Shown in pieces: positions 6,898-43,148 of a stretch of 64,000 nt of DNA. The position numbers were made by a program, and so were the translations under genes. Under the pieces are notes generated by a model that did not search any database, had not been told where the DNA came from, and worked only from the letters and a program-made list of their open reading frames with translations. Each line of letters opens with the position of its first letter. The first letter of the stretch is position 1. Source of the DNA: Actinomycetota bacterium (lineage in GTDB: Bacteria > Actinomycetota > JAHEXW01); the NCBI GenBank assembly GCA_041658625.1, contig JBAZZW010000001.1, forward strand, positions 761,760 through 825,759. The letters are read 5' to 3'.

Positions 6898-6966
6898 GGG
6901 GTCAGGCCTGGGGTCAGGCCCCAAAACCAGAGTGTCGGAAAGGGGCCTGACCCCAGGCCTGACCCC
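6898..6966. repeat. perfect 25-bp inverted repeat with a 19-nt loop, built from GGGGTCAGGCC units
   Basis: Left arm ggggtcaggcctggggtcaggcccc (6898-6922). Right arm ggggcctgaccccaggcctgacccc (6942-6966) is its exact reverse complement. Located in the purA-purD intergenic region. Confidence 0.9.
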
Positions 6967-16382: not shown

Positions 16383-16583
16383 AAGTGACTCGCATGCAGC
16401 TCGCGGCCTACCATCGTTAGGGCTTTGGGGTCAGGCCCTTTCTTCTTATGCGATAGGGCCTGACCCCGTGTTTCAAGTCGCAACGCCTTCGCGAACAATG
16501 CTCTCCGCTCGAACAGCGATTTGCCTACATGCTCGATCAATATTATCTCCTCGCCCCTACGGGGAGAGGGCAGGGTGAGGGTG
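16383..16583. repeat. composite intergenic repeat, copy A
   Basis: aagtgactcgcatgcagctcgcggcctaccatcgttagggctttggggtcaggccc...gggcctgaccccgtgtttcaagtcgcaacgcc...ggggagagggcagggtgagggtg recurs at 23352, 24077 and, diverged, at 27107. Begins 2 nt after the purF stop. Confidence 0.85.
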
Positions 16584-17055: not shown

Positions 17056-17111
17056 GCATTGTTACTATTGACAGGCTTGTCGGGTTCTGATATTTTGTAA
17101 GCAATTGAATA

Positions 17112-17235
17112 TACTCTCCGACCCCGATTCATCCCACGCGGATGATTGGGGCGACGAGCGCCAAAGTACTCTGGCGCTCAAAGGGTGTAGGAAGCAATTC
17201 CTGCGCCTCCCGTATTTGGAAAGGAGACGGATTGT
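17112..17235 (+). promoter_or_regulatory. Moco/Tuco (molybdenum or tungsten cofactor) riboswitch-like leader
   Basis: actCTCCGAcccc..., stem ccccgattcatcc/ggatgattgggg, stem gcgcc/ggcgc, stem aggaa/ttcct, then GCGCCUCCCG...GGAAAGGAGACGG. This matches my memory of the Moco RNA motif core (CUCCGAG.., GCCUCCC, GGAAAGGAG). Lies upstream of a tungstate/molybdate binding protein. Confidence 0.6.
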
Positions 17236-17247
17236 GCCTCTAGGTTG

Positions 17248-21024: not shown

Positions 21025-21165
21025 AACCGAATATACTGTCCGGCGCAGGGAAGCCCGTGAAAATCGGGCACGGTCGCGCCACTGTGAACAGGAATGATAT
21101 TCCTAAAGTCAGACACCAAACCGGACAAGCCGTAATCAGCTGATCTTCGCGGATTAAAGAGGCTG
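21025..21165 (+). promoter_or_regulatory. cobalamin (B12) riboswitch
   Basis: Core cagGGAAGCCCGTGAAAATCGGGCACGGTCGCGCCACTGtgaa includes the B12 box GCCACTG at 21078-21084. Candidate promoter is ttgaca (20990), 17 nt spacer, tacaaa (21013). Confidence 0.75.
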
Positions 21166-21177
21166 TTTTTTGCTTTT

Positions 21178-23352: not shown

Positions 23353-23601
23353 AGTGACTCGCAGGCAGCCTGCCTGCTGCAGGCAGGCTCGCGGCCTACC
23401 ATCATTAGGGCTTTGGGGTCAGGCCCTTTCTTCTTATGCGATAGGGCCTGACCCCGTGTTTCAAGTCGCAACGCTTTCGCGAACAATGCTTTCCGCTCGA
23501 CAAGCGATTCGTCCGCATGCTCGACCCTAATATTCTTCGACCAAGCGTAGTGCGTGGAGAAGTTCCCTCTCCCCGTCGGGGAGAGGATTTAGGTGAGGGG
23601 G
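23352..23601. repeat. composite intergenic repeat, copy B
   Basis: Same element as 16383-16583, with an extra palindromic insert (gcaggcagcctgcctgctgcaggcaggc) and the aatattcttcgaccaagcgtagtgcgtggagaagttccctctcccc module. Starts at the stop codon of the upstream gene. Confidence 0.85.
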
Positions 23602-23670
23602 CCAATGTTATTTTTTCAAAATATTGTAATAAATGTTTCATTCTCTGAATTTTCGTTTTATACTACCTAT

Positions 23671-24078: not shown

Positions 24079-24326
24079 ACTCGCATGCAGCTCGCGGCCT
24101 ACCATCGTTAGTGCTTTGGGGTCAGGCCCTTTCTTCTTATGCGATAGGGCCTGACCCCGTGTTTCAAGTCGCAACGCCTTCGCGAACAATGCTCTCCGCT
24201 CGATCGACGATTTGCCTGCATACTCGACCCTAATATTCTTCGACCAAGCGTAGTGCGTGGAGAAGTTCCCTCTCCCCCGCGGCCTGTGAGCCAAGTTCTT
24301 TGGCGTAGGAGAGGTTCGGTGAGGGG
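24077..24326. repeat. composite intergenic repeat, copy C
   Basis: agactcgcatgcagctcgcggcctaccatcgttagtgctttggggtcaggccc... is near-identical to copies A and B. Overlaps the msrB stop codon. Confidence 0.85.
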
Positions 24327-25697: not shown

Positions 25698-27106
25698 ATA
25701 AAACGCGGCGGATTCTAATAATAGCGGCGGCAGTTGTCGGAATCCTTCTAATCGCCGGAGGGGTGCTGGCCAAGGTCCTTGTTTACGACCGGACGGTAGA
25801 CGCGCCGACCGCGGCTGTGGCGATATCCGCCGACGATAGAGTCATGATCATCGCACCTCACCCCGACGACGAAACGCTGGGACCGGGGCTTTTGGCCAAA
25901 CAGGCCGTCAAGATCGGAGCCAAGGTCAAAGTGGTCATTGTTACGGAAGGCGACGCCGGGACGAACGCCGCGAAAGCGGAAAGCCTGAAGCTTAACCTGT
26001 CGCCGGCCGACTATCTTGAGCTGGGAAAAACCAGACATTTGGAGAGTCTGGCCGCTATGAAAGGCCTGGGCGTAACCGACCTGGTCTTTATGGGATTCGG
26101 CGACGGCAGCACGAATTCCCTGTGGCGCGCCAATTGGGACGACAATAATCCCCGTCTGGCCATGAACGGTAAAACCGCCGTGCCATACGATTTTGCTTAT
26201 TGTTTCGGCGAACTGTATTCGGGCAACAGCCTGGCCAAGAACCTTTCCGCCGTGGTAACCGACTTCAATCCGACAGTTATTTTCTACCCTACGCCCGAAG
26301 ACCTGCATCACGATCATTGGGCGGTCAACGCTTTCACCCAATATGTTCTAGCCGAGAACAACATGAAACCTCGGGAGTACACCTATCTGGTCCATCGCGG
26401 GATCCTCTGGCCCAGCCCGCCGCTCTACCGGCCGCAAAATGCTTTGCAGCCGCCCTCCGGTTTGGCTGAGATTGACGCCTCGTGGATCCGGTATAAGGTC
26501 GATGAGGCCGCGGCGGCGGATAAGCTTACGGCGGTCAACAAATATAGGAGTCAGACAAGGGTAAACGGCGTCTGGCTCAGGTCTTTCATCAGAACAAACG
26601 AACTCTTCGCGCTTTATCCGAGCCAAAAAACATCGCAAGCTTCAACGGTTCCGTCGTTCGAAGAGGGCAAGAAACTGCCCGGCCTCGTCATAAACGATTA
26701 CGAGTCGTTCGCGTTGTCTCAGCAGCTCGGCGGCAAAGGCGACATCAGCCGGTTCGCGTTCGCCTACGACAAGGATTTCGCCTTCGTGGCCGTGGAGTTT
26801 AAGAAACCGCAGGCCGCGGATGTCGTAACGATGATGAACATGAGGTTCTTCACCTCGTTAGGTGTGAACCGGTTGGACGTCAAGGTGTTGAACGGAGAAG
26901 CCAAGGCGGTGAAGGCGGCCGAGAACTCGGTAATGCCGATGGTTGAGCTGGTCAAGAACACCTCGGTGGTTGTCATCAAGGTCCCGGTAGCGGTTATGGG
27001 CGGGGCGAAGACGATGATGCTCAATGTGGATACGTTTAGGGACAATGAGAGTGAAGATAACTGGCTGGACCGCACAGTCTGGCGCCGGATAGAACTCTCA
27101 AACTAG
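25694..27106 (+). CDS. PIG-L/LmbE family deacetylase with N-terminal TM helix and an extra C-terminal domain
   Basis: IIAPHPDDETLG and LHHDHW motifs. 470 aa. 4-nt overlap with the Fic gene. Confidence 0.8.
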   Translation: MNKTRRILIIAAAVVGILLIAGGVLAKVLVYDRTVDAPTAAVAISADDRVMIIAPHPDDETLGPGLLAKQAVKIGAKVKVVIVTEGDAGTNAAKAESLKLNLSPADYLELGKTRHLESLAAMKGLGVTDLVFMGFGDGSTNSLWRANWDDNNPRLAMNGKTAVPYDFAYCFGELYSGNSLAKNLSAVVTDFNPTVIFYPTPEDLHHDHWAVNAFTQYVLAENNMKPREYTYLVHRGILWPSPPLYRPQNALQPPSGLAEIDASWIRYKVDEAAAADKLTAVNKYRSQTRVNGVWLRSFIRTNELFALYPSQKTSQASTVPSFEEGKKLPGLVINDYESFALSQQLGGKGDISRFAFAYDKDFAFVAVEFKKPQAADVVTMMNMRFFTSLGVNRLDVKVLNGEAKAVKAAENSVMPMVELVKNTSVVVIKVPVAVMGGAKTMMLNVDTFRDNESEDNWLDRTVWRRIELSN

Positions 27107-27300
27107 TGCGCGCGGGTCCTGTCATCGTTAGTGCTTTGGGGTCAGGACTCTCGCATAAGAAGAAAGTCCTGACCCCGGTTCGTATACGGCGAGCGAACCA
27201 TGCTCTCCGCTCGTTCTGTGACTTCCCTGCATGCTCGATCTTAAATATTCTTCGACTGAGCCCTTCGACTTCGCTCAGTCTAAACTCGCGGAAGCTGGCG
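27107..27300. repeat. composite intergenic repeat, diverged copy D
   Basis: catcgttagtgctttggggtcaggac...gtcctgaccccggtt...atgctctccgctcg...aatattcttcgac shares its modules with copies A-C. Begins 1 nt after the upstream stop. Confidence 0.6.
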
Positions 27301-30907: not shown

Positions 30908-31335
30908 CGCGGACAATCCCGCCCCCATATTTCCCTCCTATGAATTCCTTCTACAAATATTCTTCGAGCGAGCGTAGCGAGTGGAGAAGTTCCCTCTCCC
31001 CCGCGGGCCTGCCTGCCGGTAGGCAGGGAACTGACACGCTACTTTCTTTACCAACTAATTCACGTGCGTGGTGGATCAAGAACCAAGAACAGAAACAAAA
31101 ACAGGAACAAAATCCCCTCAGATTGATTGTCCCCACCCACCCAATTGATTGGCGACCCCGGTCACGTTCATTACCGTTGAAAAACGTAGTACTTGAGCTT
31201 GACAAATATAGGCAATGACATCGTAACGTAATTGTTGTTAAACAATAATGACATTACGAGGATATATGATTGTCCCCACCCACCCCTATTAAGAGACTCG
31301 CCGAATAAAATGCTCGAATTCTCATAAGACAAGGT

Positions 31336-32977: not shown

Positions 32978-33422
32978 TTGTTTAACGACTGGCGCAAGCG
33001 GATGCTACTTATAGTCCGTGGTAATATATTCCTCTTTTCCATGATTATGTGGGCGGAGGGGATATGCCAAATTACACGGATGAACAGAAACAAGAGGCAG
33101 ACAGAGAAACGTCACCCTGGGGCGAAGGCAGCCAGAGAATCGTCATCCCGAGTGACCCCGCAGATGCTGCGAGGGAACTCAGACGGAGCTTTCACTCCAG
33201 CTAAAATCGTGCCCTGAAGATCAAACATGAATCCAGGAAGAATCTTGCGTGGTGGAGCAGAAACAAGAACATCAAATGATTCGTGTTTGGTGGATCGGAA
33301 ACAAGAACCAGTAGGTTGAAAGGCAAGACTTGACGCCTTTAATAGAAGTAATTCGGCGACGCAATAAAGACAGAATGAACTTTTCTTGTTAGTATTTGCA
33401 TTAATACGGCGCGTGTCTTGGT

Positions 33423-39562: not shown

Positions 39563-39655
39563 ATGTTTAGAGTATGTATACAAAACAACCAGCTCGTTTA
39601 TGAGCTATACGGCCTAACCGACGAAGCAATAACGGGGTCAAGTCTTTACTTTTAA
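39563..39655 (+). pseudogene. remnant of the C-terminal end of a type IIG / PglX-like DNA methyltransferase
   Basis: The frame encodes ...NQLVYELYGLTDEAIT... then a stop. (L)VYELYGLT(E/D)EEI is the characteristic extreme C-terminus of Eco57I/PglX-type N6-adenine methyltransferases. No upstream body remains. Confidence 0.45.
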
Positions 39656-39739
39656 CATTCTCTTAAAACCTGGTTTCTAGGTCTCGTCTTCTAAAAGTCA
39701 AGTCTGTTTTTAGTCATTTGATTCTGCTAGTCTGGCGAC

Positions 39740-39934
39740 ATGGTAAGAGCACTGCGCATCGAATACCCCGGGGCTGTCTATCACGTAATGAGCCGCGGTA
39801 ACGAAAGAAAAGCAATTGTCCGATCAAAAGAGGACCGAGAACGGTTCACTGAAGTCTTAAGAGAAGGCGCGAGTCGATTCAACATCCTGATCCACGCCTA
39901 TTCAAAGTCAAAGGGGTCAGGTCGTGCTATGTAA
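39740..39934 (+). pseudogene. 5' fragment of a RAYT/IS200-like Y1 transposase gene
   Basis: MVRALRIEYPGAVYHVMSRGNERKAIVRSKEDRERFTEVLREGASRFNILIHAY parallels the first ~56 aa of the full-length gene at 40002-40880, then diverges into a REP-like sequence and stops. Confidence 0.7.
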
Positions 39935-40965
39935 CCTTTTAAGTTGGTGAAGTTGATGCACTACCAACTTATGAATCTGAACAGGCACGGCAACCTTGCA
40001 ATTACCCTTCATTGAGATATTTTTCTGTTTCTGAGATCACTCGGCTTAAATAGGCGCGGTGAAGACCTAGATGGTTTGCGACTTCTCGCTGCTTGTATCC
40101 GAAATCGTAGATTGCGCTATGTGCCTTTAGGTTTCTATCTGATATTGACAATCCGGCCGGGAGCAAGGCCGAAAGTGGGGGCCGGTCAGCGTATCTGTGT
40201 GATCGAGCGAGTTCTTTTATCTCGTCTGCTTCCCAAAAGACGTTTGAGAGCTTATCGATGAAGGTGTCGCTCCCTAAGACACAGCCACCGCGGATATTCT
40301 CGAACGGCTTGTCGGAGCCGGCCTCAGGGGTCAAGACGAATTCCTGGTACCGCTTTTTGGCCAGCCTCTTCTTGCCCGCGAACTGGGAGAGGACCCAATC
40401 AGTCGCGAGAAAACCGCCATCGTTATCTGACAGGCCGGCAATCGCGCGGTAGCTACTCCATCTGTAATCGGCCGGATGCTCGACGAGGCCCGCCCGGATC
40501 GGATTCAAAACGATATATCGGCAAAGACACAAGAGATACTCGTCGCGTTCGACGAGGATAGCCTTGTATCGACCCTGATAGACATGACCGACTGTTTTGT
40601 TTCGGGCGTTATAACGAGTTGTATAGACCCCGTTGATGTAATGCATGACCTCAGCGAGGTTGCCGTCAGGAGTCTCAACGAGAAGGTGGTAATGGTTTGT
40701 CATTAGGCAGTAGCCGTGGATGAGAACGTTAAAGCGTTTTGCGGCTTCTTCCAGAATTACCAGAAAAGCCTCACGGTCCTTATTTGTTCTGACGATAGAC
40801 TTCCGGCCGTCGCCGCGGCTCATAACGTGGTAGACGGCGCCGGGGTACTCGATGCGTAGAGGTCGTGCCATGACGAACACGCTATCAAATTATGGATGAA
40901 AGAAAAAGACTTGACTTATAACGGACGGAGTCAATAATTAACCTTACAAAGCACGACCTGACCCC
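39913..40965 (-). mobile_element. RAYT-type unit: Y1 transposase gene bracketed by inverted 15-nt REP-like sequences
   Basis: ggggtcaggtcgtgc at 39913-39927 and its exact reverse complement gcacgacctgacccc at 40951-40965 flank the transposase CDS. Confidence 0.7.
40002..40880 (-). CDS. IS200/REP-associated tyrosine (Y1, HUH) transposase-like protein with C-terminal DnaA-C-like HTH
   Basis: YHVMSRG, HUH-type MTNHYHLLVETP and catalytic-Tyr region VYQGRYKAILV. C-terminus GYKQREVANHLGLHRAYLSRVI is HTH-like. Confidence 0.8.
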   Translation of the reverse strand: MFVMARPLRIEYPGAVYHVMSRGDGRKSIVRTNKDREAFLVILEEAAKRFNVLIHGYCLMTNHYHLLVETPDGNLAEVMHYINGVYTTRYNARNKTVGHVYQGRYKAILVERDEYLLCLCRYIVLNPIRAGLVEHPADYRWSSYRAIAGLSDNDGGFLATDWVLSQFAGKKRLAKKRYQEFVLTPEAGSDKPFENIRGGCVLGSDTFIDKLSNVFWEADEIKELARSHRYADRPPLSALLPAGLSISDRNLKAHSAIYDFGYKQREVANHLGLHRAYLSRVISETEKYLNEG

Positions 40966-41032
40966 TAAGCCGACCCCGGTCAGATAGTACATAAAGAAAA
41001 ATAGAATTACTCTATTGAAGGGGAGGAGCATT

Positions 41033-41704
41033 ATGACACAGACGATTGATTTAAAGAAAGAACAGCAAGCTTCGATTGCCAGGCCGCGGTACAAATATTC
41101 TATAATGGCGCGGAGTTTTTTTATAACCATGGATATCCTGACGGGCCGTAAGGTGACTTTGTCAAAGGCCAAGTTGCTGGAGACTCTGGCCTGCATTCCT
41201 TACCGTGAATGGGAGATCCGGCAGTATATCCGGCTGACCCGACGGTATCGAAAGTGGGAATTCGTCGATTGGGCCAACGGCATAAAACAATGGAGCCGAA
41301 ACGCCCAGGACAATGAATACACCCACCTTCTGATCGTCAACGAGAAGATGAAAGAAGACGGGATGAAAGACGCCTGGTACCTGTTCCCGTTAATCCCATT
41401 TATCATGGTCATGGTCTATGTCCCCTTCGCGAAGACGTTAGCATTATTCCGTACTCGGCGAGCCTTTCTTTTTAACGCCGAATTCGAGGACCACGCCGAG
41501 CACGTATACGCCCAGTTCGTTGGGGAGCATCCGGAGTGGGACGAACAAAAAGTAGATAACGATCTGGTGAAAGCTTACGCGGATGTCGAAACCTGGGGCG
41601 ATGTTTTCCGCCGCGTTGGTTTGGACGAACGCGACCACAGGAACGCAAGCTTTGTCGCTTGCGGCAAACCGGAGTTTGTCGTTGAATACGAAGGGATGCC
41701 TTAA
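41033..41704 (+). CDS. alternative-oxidase-like di-iron carboxylate protein (AOX/PTOX family, tentative)
   Basis: LLETLACIPY, NEKMKE, AEFEDHAEHVY and DERDHRN are spaced like the four AOX iron-binding helices (LET, NE.MH, E.EE..H, DE..HR). ATG at 41033 follows GGGGAGGAG. Confidence 0.55.
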   Translation: MTQTIDLKKEQQASIARPRYKYSIMARSFFITMDILTGRKVTLSKAKLLETLACIPYREWEIRQYIRLTRRYRKWEFVDWANGIKQWSRNAQDNEYTHLLIVNEKMKEDGMKDAWYLFPLIPFIMVMVYVPFAKTLALFRTRRAFLFNAEFEDHAEHVYAQFVGEHPEWDEQKVDNDLVKAYADVETWGDVFRRVGLDERDHRNASFVACGKPEFVVEYEGMP

Positions 41705-41751
41705 AAGGGTCAAGTCTGTTTCTAGTCCTTTGGTTCTGCTAGTCTAGCGCT

Positions 41752-42258
41752 ATGGATAAGTCACAAAAACGAGAGGAACACCGGGCCACTCGGGAAGTCA
41801 AGAGGCAGGCGCACGAAGATGAAATGGTTAAGCTGCGCGGCAAGCGGGAGGGCAAGAAATGGGCCTTCTCTCTCGGCCTGATGATTCCATTTCTGCTAAT
41901 CGTCGTATCTTTCGCCGCTGTCGCGTACGTTTTGTTAGTACTCCCCGGACGCTCCATTAACCAAACAGACACTATGGCCGCCAAGGCGATACTTAAAGCC
42001 GCCGCTGTTGCCGCCGACCAATTCGCTTCGGACCATAACAATTCTTATGGAGGCATGACAGCGGGCGATCTGAAAGCCATCGACTCTAAGATTAACTGGG
42101 CTGACGGCGCTCCTAATCCCGGCCAGGTCGGTATCGTCTCGGCCGAAGAAACTACGTTCAAATTGGTCTATAAGGATTCGACCGGCGGCGAATTCCAAGC
42201 GGCGCGCGATAAACCGGGGGCGCCATCTTTCACAGACGTCAGCGGCAACCCGATATAG
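41752..42258 (+). CDS. hypothetical membrane-anchored protein, pilin-like architecture
   Basis: Basic N-terminus, one TM helix, then AAKAILKAAAVAADQFASDHNNSYGGMTAGDLKAID. Similar layout to 52304-52672. Confidence 0.45.
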   Translation: MDKSQKREEHRATREVKRQAHEDEMVKLRGKREGKKWAFSLGLMIPFLLIVVSFAAVAYVLLVLPGRSINQTDTMAAKAILKAAAVAADQFASDHNNSYGGMTAGDLKAIDSKINWADGAPNPGQVGIVSAEETTFKLVYKDSTGGEFQAARDKPGAPSFTDVSGNPI

Positions 42259-42271
42259 AGCTTTGGTGTTT

Positions 42272-42673
42272 CTACTGTACTTTGATTTTGTACTTTAGGG
42301 TGTTGGCGGGAGCAACGGGTTTGTCCCAGGTCCGGAGATAATTGAGCGTTATCGTCGTTTCGCCGGCCGCGATTGCCTTATAGGACCAAACATGATCGCC
42401 GCCTGAGCCCACTCGCCCCGTATTATCGGCCGTGTATTTGTCGCTTATCTTTTTAACGACTTTACTGTCTGTACCCTTGGCCATCTGCCATACATATCCC
42501 GTAGTCGCGTTGCCTCTGAGAGTAATCGTGAATTGCTGGCCTACAGACGCTTCAATGGTCTTGCCCGAATCGGCCTCGGTATAATTAGCCGTTCTAAGGC
42601 TGCAACCTACATAAATCAGGACCGCGACAATACCCAGAACAAAGACTAATGAAATTACTAAGGTTCTTCTCAT
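42272..42673 (-). CDS. chagasin/ICP-family (I42) cysteine-protease inhibitor, lipoprotein or secreted
   Basis: GNATTGYVWQ motif (NPTTGY.W type). Start at 42673 is preceded by GGAGG. The tracked ORF extends to 42724. Confidence 0.8.
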   Translation of the reverse strand: MRRTLVISLVFVLGIVAVLIYVGCSLRTANYTEADSGKTIEASVGQQFTITLRGNATTGYVWQMAKGTDSKVVKKISDKYTADNTGRVGSGGDHVWSYKAIAAGETTITLNYLRTWDKPVAPANTLKYKIKVQ

Positions 42674-42809
42674 TTGGCGCCTCCATGGCCTAGCGCTAAC
42701 CCCGCTGCCAGCTGATTTAATCATATACGCACAGCCAGTTAATTAAAAGGGTTCAATATGTAAATGGGGCCAGGGGTTGAATAATAAGGTTTCGGTTATT
42801 GCTTACGCG

Positions 42810-42896: not shown

Positions 42897-43148
42897 ATGG
42901 ACAAGAATATGATTAGCACAACGGAAGCGGCAAAGATAATGGGCATAAGCCGTATAGCTGTCTGGAAGAAGATAAGTCAAGGGAAACTTAAGGCTGTAAA
43001 AATCGGTCGGAACTATGTTATCGATAGGCAAGATCTTGGGGATATCTATTCGGAGACGACACCCGAAACTGAAAAGATTATCGACGAAACGGTCGACCGG
43101 GTCATAAAGGAATATGGAGACGCGCTTAACAGGTTGGGCAAAGAATGA
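42897..43148 (+). CDS. excisionase/MerR-type HTH DNA-binding protein (antitoxin of Doc)
   Basis: ISTTEAAKIMGISRIAVWKKISQGKLKAVKIGRNYVI. ATGA overlap with the Doc gene. Confidence 0.8.
   Translation: MDKNMISTTEAAKIMGISRIAVWKKISQGKLKAVKIGRNYVIDRQDLGDIYSETTPETEKIIDETVDRVIKEYGDALNRLGKE

Follow-up and report, generated by a model that had tools for sequence, protein, structure and literature searches.

A RAYT-like Y1 transposase gene between inverted repeats in a genome of Actinomycetota: probably a TIRtron amid the ends of older copies

What kind of element places a gene for a RAYT-like Y1 transposase between two short inverted repeats in the genome of an Actinomycetota bacterium (assembly GCA_041658625.1)? 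The gene lies in a 64,000-nt stretch of contig JBAZZW010000001.1 (positions 761,760 to 825,759), here called the window, to which all positions refer unless a contig or locus is named. A preliminary description of this DNA took the locus for an arrangement of repetitive extragenic palindromes (REPs) around a REP-associated tyrosine transposase (RAYT), and saw in the enzyme a plausible mobiliser of palindromes dispersed elsewhere in the window. We find that the flanking sequences are canonical terminal inverted repeats (TIRs) of the TIRYT/TIRtron class, and that positions 39912–40966 very probably constitute a TIRtron with a single TIRYT gene of TnpA-Y1 subclass 2.1. TIRtrons have been defined as TIRYT genes flanked by TIRs that share the motif GGGGWSAS (Di Nocera, De Gregorio and Rocco, 2013, BMC Genomics 14:522, PMC3733652). 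The locus adds no new principle; it belongs to a known class, and the REP-RAYT label is to be replaced by TIRtron/TIRYT.

The intact unit, T1, is 1055 nt long and holds one gene between 23-nt inverted arms. The TIR on the 3′ side of the gene lies at 39912–39934 on the plus strand (AGGGGTCAGGTCGTGCTATGTAA), and the one on the 5′ side, at 40944–40966 on the minus strand, closes the unit; both are headed by GGGGTCAG, which matches GGGGWSAS as defined in PMC3733652 at the outer end. The preliminary description correctly placed the 15-mer GGGGTCAGGTCGTGC at 39913–39927 and its exact reverse complement at 40951–40965, and the repeat in fact extends to 23 nt with one mismatch (96% complementarity; AGGGGTCAGGTCGTGCT[A/T]TGTAA), with 1009 nt separating the arms. 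Outside these two copies the exact 15-mer is absent from the 1.77-Mb genome, whereas its 9-nt head, GGGGTCAGG, is common to the dispersed palindromes, as had been claimed. Arms of related T1 type occur at three further sites in the genome. When folded as single-stranded DNA, the two arm regions were no more stable than shuffled sequence, at z-scores of −1.9 and −2.5, with the arm not in a stem of its own, compared with −6.6 and −6.8 for the dispersed palindromes. As the arms have no fold of their own, they are not REP hairpins; the flanks can be called REP-like for the shared 9-nt head, not for the arms, which are single and not palindromic. An Rfam search of the region found no known RNA.

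The gene between the arms (40002–40880, minus strand) encodes 292 amino acids from a GTG at 40880, or 289 from an ATG at 40871, the latter being the start that aligns with all relatives. The product carries an HUH motif (HYH), the catalytic tyrosine within RYIVLNP, a WSS motif and, at its C-terminus, a helix-turn-helix (HTH), and the 292-aa open reading frame (ORF) matches the Pfam family Y1_Tnp with 53.8 bits, so that its first description as an HUH/Y1 transposase-like gene holds. In NCBIfam it scores 75.8 bits against REP_Tyr_transpos, below the equivalog cut-off of 80, and 19 bits against transpos_IS200, where the cut-off is 55. Residues H60, Y61, H62 and Y119 (in R-Y-I-x-x-N-P) are invariant in an alignment of 30 sequences, as are W138 and S139 of the serine motif at 138–140, and S140 is kept in at least 90% of them. 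The AlphaFold2 model (mean pLDDT 85.8) has confident helices at 243–288, and its top Foldseek match is E. coli TnpA_REP on a REP hairpin (4ER8, E 2e-7, target TM 0.76), with the IS608 and ISDra2 transposases ranking after it; a phmmer search of the PDB sequences gave no match at E ≤ 1. The C-terminal 100 residues end in the HTH, and relatives match HTH_23 (28 of 30) and HTH_28 (12 of 30). The gene is thus a RAYT-like Y1 enzyme, by NCBIfam score and by fold, and not an IS200 TnpA. We would place it in subclass 2.1 on domain content: members share the HUH/Y1 core, a WSS after the catalytic tyrosine and a C-terminal HTH, their C-termini match Bac_DnaA_C, HTH_23 or HTH_28, and the subclass holds 20 of the 26 published TIRYTs (Quentin, Siguier, Chandler and Fichant, 2018, PMC6006769).

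The TIRYT family is large, with at least 7,761 proteins at E ≤ 1e-10 among the 8,000 candidates scored. The closest relatives of the window protein are 87% and 81% identical to it, and a scan of metagenomes found no homolog above 50% identity. Many homologs come from contigs that are about 1 kb long and stand alone, a pattern to be expected when multi-copy elements disrupt assembly. We sampled 160 public loci from two collections; in 131 of them the match was full-length and the flanks could be used. A flanking inverted repeat was present in 101 of these 131, and in 72 of the 101 it had the strict GGGGWSAS motif. In the 55 of these 72 with 24 nt of readable arm, the head GGGGTCAGGTCTT hardly varied, and the window 15-mer is one position off this consensus. 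The public units have a median length of 928 nt, and their left TIR mostly ends 20–35 nt before the ATG.

TIRs likewise flank every long paralog or ortholog that we examined (L001, L009, L002, L003 and the G019 and G004 loci), and GGGGTCA opens the arms of all of them. The second copy in this genome, T2 (C1:33972–34948, locus L009), has perfect 23-nt arms (GGGGTCACGTCTTGTATCTTAAC), and its relative in genome G002, of another genus, has perfect 33-nt arms (locus L002); the copy in G036, of another family of the same phylum, has GGGTCAGGTCTTTACATTTTAA arms, and several G019 and G004 copies have repeats of which each copy shows its own variant. The last codons and the stop of the T2 and G002 genes (…K-T-stop) are encoded within the arm, and a KT C-terminus is found in many family members. 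All this resembles the published TIRtrons, in which a RAYT-like Y1 gene sits between long TIRs with GGGGWSAS, some copies have a TIR that reaches into the 3′ end of the ORF, several TIRYT genes may coexist in a genome, each bounded by a TIR of its own, and TIR-derived repeats are moderately abundant, part of them being self-complementary and part arranged as dimers or clusters (PMC3733652). As homologs in many phyla lie between the same arms, we regard them as the ends of an element and not as a lineage-specific REP; these comparisons show the unit of gene plus TIRs to be conserved across many phyla.

The comparison of T2 with the G002 copy suggests that this unit is also mobile. The two are 81% identical in DNA exactly from TIR to TIR (1467–2447 in L009, 1482–2463 in L002), and outside the TIRs they have no matching DNA. 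G001 and G002 both have the gene that lies left of T2 (75–76% identity) but no element beside it, and neither has a counterpart of the right flank of T2. G001, which belongs to the same genus as G002, shows a weak match to the protein and no DNA match to the G002 locus. Since the homology runs from TIR to TIR between unrelated flanks and the presence of the element is patchy, the unit has been gained, lost or moved as a block. The TIRtron thus behaves as a discrete unit, with homology between genera that stops at the TIR tips, and apparently moves or is transferred. RAYTs are vertically inherited, whereas the window-type unit appears to move between genomes.

Several observations weigh against reading the locus as a mobile TIRtron connected with the dispersed hairpins. 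Target-site duplications were sought at T1, T2 and the G002 copy and none was visible, and a search for an empty TIRtron site in G001 and G002 gave no clean site or exact junction. There are three Y1 genes in the genome in all (T1, T2 and a shorter one, T3), with one copy per TIRtron type and paralogs that are about 60% identical, so that recent autonomous transposition is not indicated here. The window protein's own HTH matches are weak (E 0.056–0.19, residues 252–282). The stems of the dispersed hairpins part from the TIR after 9–10 nt, the exact 15-mer being confined to the locus, and the hairpins of the largest family (family A, below) are nested in a larger repeat of about 170 nt. Finally, a literature search met the term TIRtron/TIRYT in two works, those of 2013 and 2018 cited here, and found no transposition, cleavage or binding experiment for any TIRYT.

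Some of these points would fit a domesticated, immobile gene, an explanation that we take seriously and nevertheless consider doubtful. According to it, the repeats and an inner copy of a motif shared with the TIRs (GTCAAGTCT, below) are operators bound by the HTH in autoregulation, or there is a host function such as processing of single-stranded DNA at replication forks, and the hairpins are unrelated structural or terminator elements that have no more than a G-rich stem in common with the TIRs. Single copies of each type with diverged paralogs agree with this, as does the presence of an HTH domain; the inner TIR copy of the intact gene lies at the −35 region of a promoter-like TAGNNT 6–7 nt before the ATG (judged partly by eye), and roles other than transposition have been suggested by Quentin et al. 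(PMC6006769). An immobile gene does not, on the other hand, account for homology across genera that ends exactly at the TIR tips between unrelated flanks, or for presence that varies within a genus (found in G002, not found in G001). It also sits poorly with the many public homologs on contigs of about 1 kb, with TIR doublets that have no gene between them (C1:338233, L004 and G019), and with hairpins that look like lineage-specific insertions. Operator function and a TIRtron mechanism are in any case not mutually exclusive.

The classical REP-RAYT arrangement, or REPtron, in which a domesticated RAYT sits between two REP hairpins of its own and disperses this REP genome-wide, we consider improbable, although it shares much with the locus. 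The enzyme belongs to the same superfamily, its REP_Tyr_transpos score nearly reaches the cut-off, and the best structural match and closest solved fold is that of TnpA_REP (4ER8). The gene lies between inverted short repeats that have relatives dispersed in intergenic DNA, the 9-nt head being common to 53 dispersed hairpins; the gene-less inverted doublets form long hairpins here, like REPINs (Nunvar, 2010; Bertels and Rainey, 2011); and the paralog at C1:180519–181058 is truly flanked by two such hairpins. The defining feature, hairpins at the flanks, fails at the window gene, however, where the arms are not palindromes; the flanking 15-mer has no further copy and is no dispersed high-copy family, the head reads GGGG instead of GTAG, the protein is longer and carries an HTH, and homologs in many phyla are bounded by the same arms. 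An insertion sequence (IS) of the IS200/IS605 type, with subterminal hairpins and with the 15-mers as incidental repeats, is more improbable still, to a degree that we give it hardly any weight. The HUH/Y1 fold, and presumably the single-strand cleavage chemistry, are common to both, and the Pfam family bears the name IS200. The elements of this type (IS608, ISDra2) nevertheless use subterminal hairpins and have no terminal inverted repeats, whereas single-stranded folds of the arm regions show no significant subterminal hairpins and the family has conserved inverted repeats as its ends. The transpos_IS200 score is far below its cut-off, there is no tnpB, and the window protein, with its HTH tail, is twice as long as an IS200 TnpA (about 130–150 aa and no HTH).

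The substrate of Y1 enzymes is single-stranded DNA, in which they recognise stems. For the TIRtron, which we favor, we suggest that the two TIRs of one strand would anneal as a 23-bp stem that leaves the gene in a loop, and that the TIRYT would nick and rejoin the single strand at the base of this stem, where the first pairs are GGGGTCAGG/CCTGACCCC. The dispersed hairpins would offer the same stem base with a short loop and could be gene-less substrates of one of the three Y1 enzymes; an enzyme that cut and rejoined the strand there would excise or copy TIRtron or hairpin alike. The C-terminal HTH probably binds the body of the TIR, or the inner TIR copy beside the promoter. TIRtrons are very common yet little studied, and their combination of inverted-repeat ends with a single-strand HUH/Y1 enzyme is not covered by any characterised transposition mechanism.

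The hairpins themselves are numerous. The window contains 14 occurrences of GGGGTCAGG, where 0.39 would be expected, and the genome 133, where a uniform sequence would give about 13. Counted genome-wide, the palindromes of the preliminary description come to 53 hairpins of the form GGGGTCAGG…CCTGACCCC, with loops of 5–31 nt, in five classes: family A (41 nt, 32 copies, 12 of them identical), family A′ (39 nt, 6 copies), family B (37 nt, 6 copies), family C (45 nt, 8 copies) and a single 77-nt TIR doublet whose arms are full TIRs. The hairpins sit after unrelated housekeeping genes. A strict hairpin pattern found 49 matches in this genome (G000) and none in its three nearest relatives, with 3 and 5 in two more distant relatives that have several TIRYT genes, and a reversed-pattern control gave none anywhere. 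The purA–purD spacer, which measures 99 nt here and 18–21 nt in the two nearest relatives, G002 and G001, provides a clean filled-versus-empty site; it is filled by a nested double hairpin (6898–6966) with two GGGGTCAGG heads and two CCTGACCCC tails. The hairpins are thus lineage-specific insertions, for which the cross-genome counts, coming from non-independent relatives, are only suggestive. Integron attC sites were considered as the identity of the hairpins and dropped, as the AAC/GTT boxes lie at the inner and not at the outer stem ends.

The nesting of family A in a larger repeat implies that the hairpin may not be the mobile unit. The window TIR variant GGTCGTGC, moreover, is found in none of the hairpins. 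For both reasons the idea that the T1 enzyme mobilises the palindromes is possible but unsupported. The larger repeat, of about 140–170 nt, lies in the window at 16390–16510, 23380–23500, 24080–24200 and 27100–27220, and at some 30 more sites in the genome. It has a 41-nt hairpin core (GGGGTCAGGCCCTTTCTTCTTATGCGATAGGGCCTGACCCC) between conserved flanks (…CGGCCTACCATCGTTAGTGCTTT / GTGTTTCAAGTCGC…GAACAATGCTCTCCGCTCG), follows purF-like, msrB and PIG-L family genes, and has no Rfam match.

A better candidate mobiliser than T1, at least for family B, is the third Y1 gene, T3 (C1:180519–181058). Its product, a 185-aa paralog of the TIRYT with 55% identity across 181 aa, retains the HUH, tyrosine and WSS motifs but has no HTH tail. 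T3 is flanked by two 37-nt family-B palindromes, GGGGTCAGGCACGGGGYCWGGCCCCRTGCCTGACCCC (C1:180464–181164; L014 1446–2146), with further copies at C1:92273, 130661 and 308159. The downstream hairpin directly adjoins the stop codon of T3, and decayed TIR-like arms lie outside both hairpins. The arrangement is REPtron-like on a relative of the TIRYTs, and thereby differs from what has been described for subclass 2.1, where REP-like sequences were not found near the genes (PMC6006769). In a maximum-likelihood tree T3 falls on a long unresolved branch, so that its origin by truncation is unproven. Tentatively, the genome may show a step from TIRtron to REP/RAYT, in which the head of a TIR turned into a hairpin and spread, in this lineage and no other, to about 50 intergenic sites, while T3 lost the HTH tail, was reduced to RAYT size and came to be bracketed by hairpins within decayed TIRs; we think this somewhat improbable as it stands. 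If true, REP/RAYT systems could arise from TIR-bounded autonomous elements, in contradiction to the published lack of REPs near subclass 2.1 genes. In any event, one small genome contains TIRtrons, hairpins with TIR heads and a truncated paralog set between such hairpins, and this offers a tangible link from TIR-bounded elements to REP-type repeats.

The surroundings of T1 differ from those of published TIRtrons in two respects. The left end of the unit is two-tiered, with an inner partial TIR copy at about −45 in addition to the outer TIR, and the unit is surrounded by an accumulation of decayed left ends, including one now joined to an unrelated ORF. The inner, decayed copy of the intact gene lies at 40896–40918 on the minus strand (TAAGTCAAGTCTTTTTCTTTCAT), 47 nt before the ATG, and L003 shows a two-tiered left end as well, as do L009 and L002 less clearly. 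The motif GTCAAGTCT has five matches in the window against 0.32 expected, at 39637, 39697 and 41709 on the plus strand and at 40907 and 33326 on the minus strand. Its recurrence had been noticed in the preliminary description, with one copy placed a few bases off (39641 for 39637), and was ascribed there to the reuse of a leader sequence. The copies are better explained as left ends, TIR plus promoter region, of decayed TIRtron copies. Three of them lie 34–35 nt upstream of an ATG, namely that of a TIRYT gene fragment, that of the intact gene and that of a 168-aa ORF, and the three left ends that bear them start 46–47 nt before the ATG, the usual position of a left TIR. The GGGG head has decayed in two of these leader TIRs (AAAGTCAAGTCT, TAAGTCAAGTCT) and is nearly intact at 41706 (GGGTCAAGTCT).

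Leader A (39694–39739, plus strand; AAAGTCAAGTCTGTTTTTAGTC), a decayed inner left TIR, has a promoter-like TAGTCT 6 nt before the ATG of the fragment and is homologous to the upstream region of the intact copy. Leader B (41706–41751, plus strand; GGGTCAAGTCTGTTTCTAGTCC ... TAGTCT), a solo TIRtron left end, is fused to the ATG of the 168-aa ORF (41752–42258, plus strand), which is membrane-anchored, unrelated to TIRYT and has no Pfam or NCBIfam match. The two leaders are 92% identical over 37 nt (39697–39733 and 41709–41745), with no other genomic copy; the homology carries on to about 41760, and the leader measures 37–46 nt. Leader A is followed by the 5′ fragment of a second TIRYT gene (39740–39912, plus strand), about 57 codons long and cut just before the HUH motif. 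The truncated second copy that had been described at 39740–39934 is therefore real: this 64-aa ORF, which runs into the TIR, is 63% identical in amino acids to residues 4–62 of the intact protein, and DNA homology of the stump to the intact copy extends from 39685, 12 nt upstream of the inner motif, to 39912, the first base of the TIR of the intact unit. The rest of the older gene was sought beyond the other TIR and not found.

Farther out, a solo TIR (39634–39660, plus strand; GGGGTCAAGTCTTTACTTTTAACATTC) is the outer left end of the decayed copy. It is a full TIR (GGGGTCAAGTCTTTACTTTTAAC) of a variant that is also present in public elements (for example GGGGTCAAGTCTTTACTCTTGA in L064), and it is matched at C1:~15965 in the same genome. 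It abuts the orphan C-terminal tail of a type IIG/PglX-like methyltransferase (39583–39633, plus strand), which reads LVYELYGLTDEAIT; a full gene that ends in this peptide and is then followed by a like TIR is found at C2:297500–297583. The position of the leaders, their identity and the end of the stump at the TIR together indicate that the intact TIRtron abuts an older stump. The leader motifs and the 64-aa ORF are what is left of at least one older TIRtron lineage, which makes the locus a pile-up of TIRtron ends: an intact unit against an older stump, a solo outer TIR and an extra left end of the old type. Its value as a specimen lies in the intact unit inserted against the older stump and in the element end captured before an unrelated gene.

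A TAGNNT hexamer 6–7 nt before each ATG, with no Shine-Dalgarno sequence (both read by eye), suggests leaderless transcription. A scan for sigma-70 consensus promoters found sites no more numerous than in shuffles, so a leaderless promoter is something that we infer. At 40911–40938 on the plus strand, the reverse complement of the inner GTCAAGTCT gives an outward promoter-like site, TTGACT-16-AATAAT, toward the neighboring gene for an AOX-like di-iron protein. This gene (41033–41704, plus strand) lies outside the element; its assignment is marginal, with 23.8 bits for Pfam AOX where the cut-off is 22.7, and a 74%-identical homolog is present in G003, a genome of the same order. The whole stretch has almost no counterpart in the nearest relatives. 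Just downstream lie genes for a chagasin-family peptidase inhibitor (I42, 93 bits; 42272–42724, minus strand) and an excisionase-like HTH_17 protein (42897–43148, plus strand), which is consistent with a variable island.

Two further repeats were observed. One, of about 40 nt and unrelated to the larger repeat around family A, reads GCGTAGYGMGTGGAGAAGTTCCCTCTCCCC(GTC)GGGGAGAGG…GTGAGGGGG, with a short G/C hairpin and a conserved 5′ flank; it occurs in the window at 23564–23604 and 30962–31000, at about 40 sites in the genome, and with 27 matches in G004. The other, of about 60 nt (…CTGATCCACCANGCACGAGATTAGTTGGTAAAG…GCGYGTCAG), has about 20 copies, among them 31040–31100 and 33281–33340 in the window, both on the minus strand, and copies at C2:297531–297900 and C1:15830–16035. 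It directly follows a solo TIR-like arm (GGGGTMAGGTCGTGCTTTTTAACC) at no fewer than five sites, that is at least five, and may be a composite non-autonomous element with one T1-type TIR. The window also contains a Moco/tungsten riboswitch (17104–17242, 60.5 bits) and an AdoCbl riboswitch (21025–21168, 54.6 bits), both above the Rfam gathering score.

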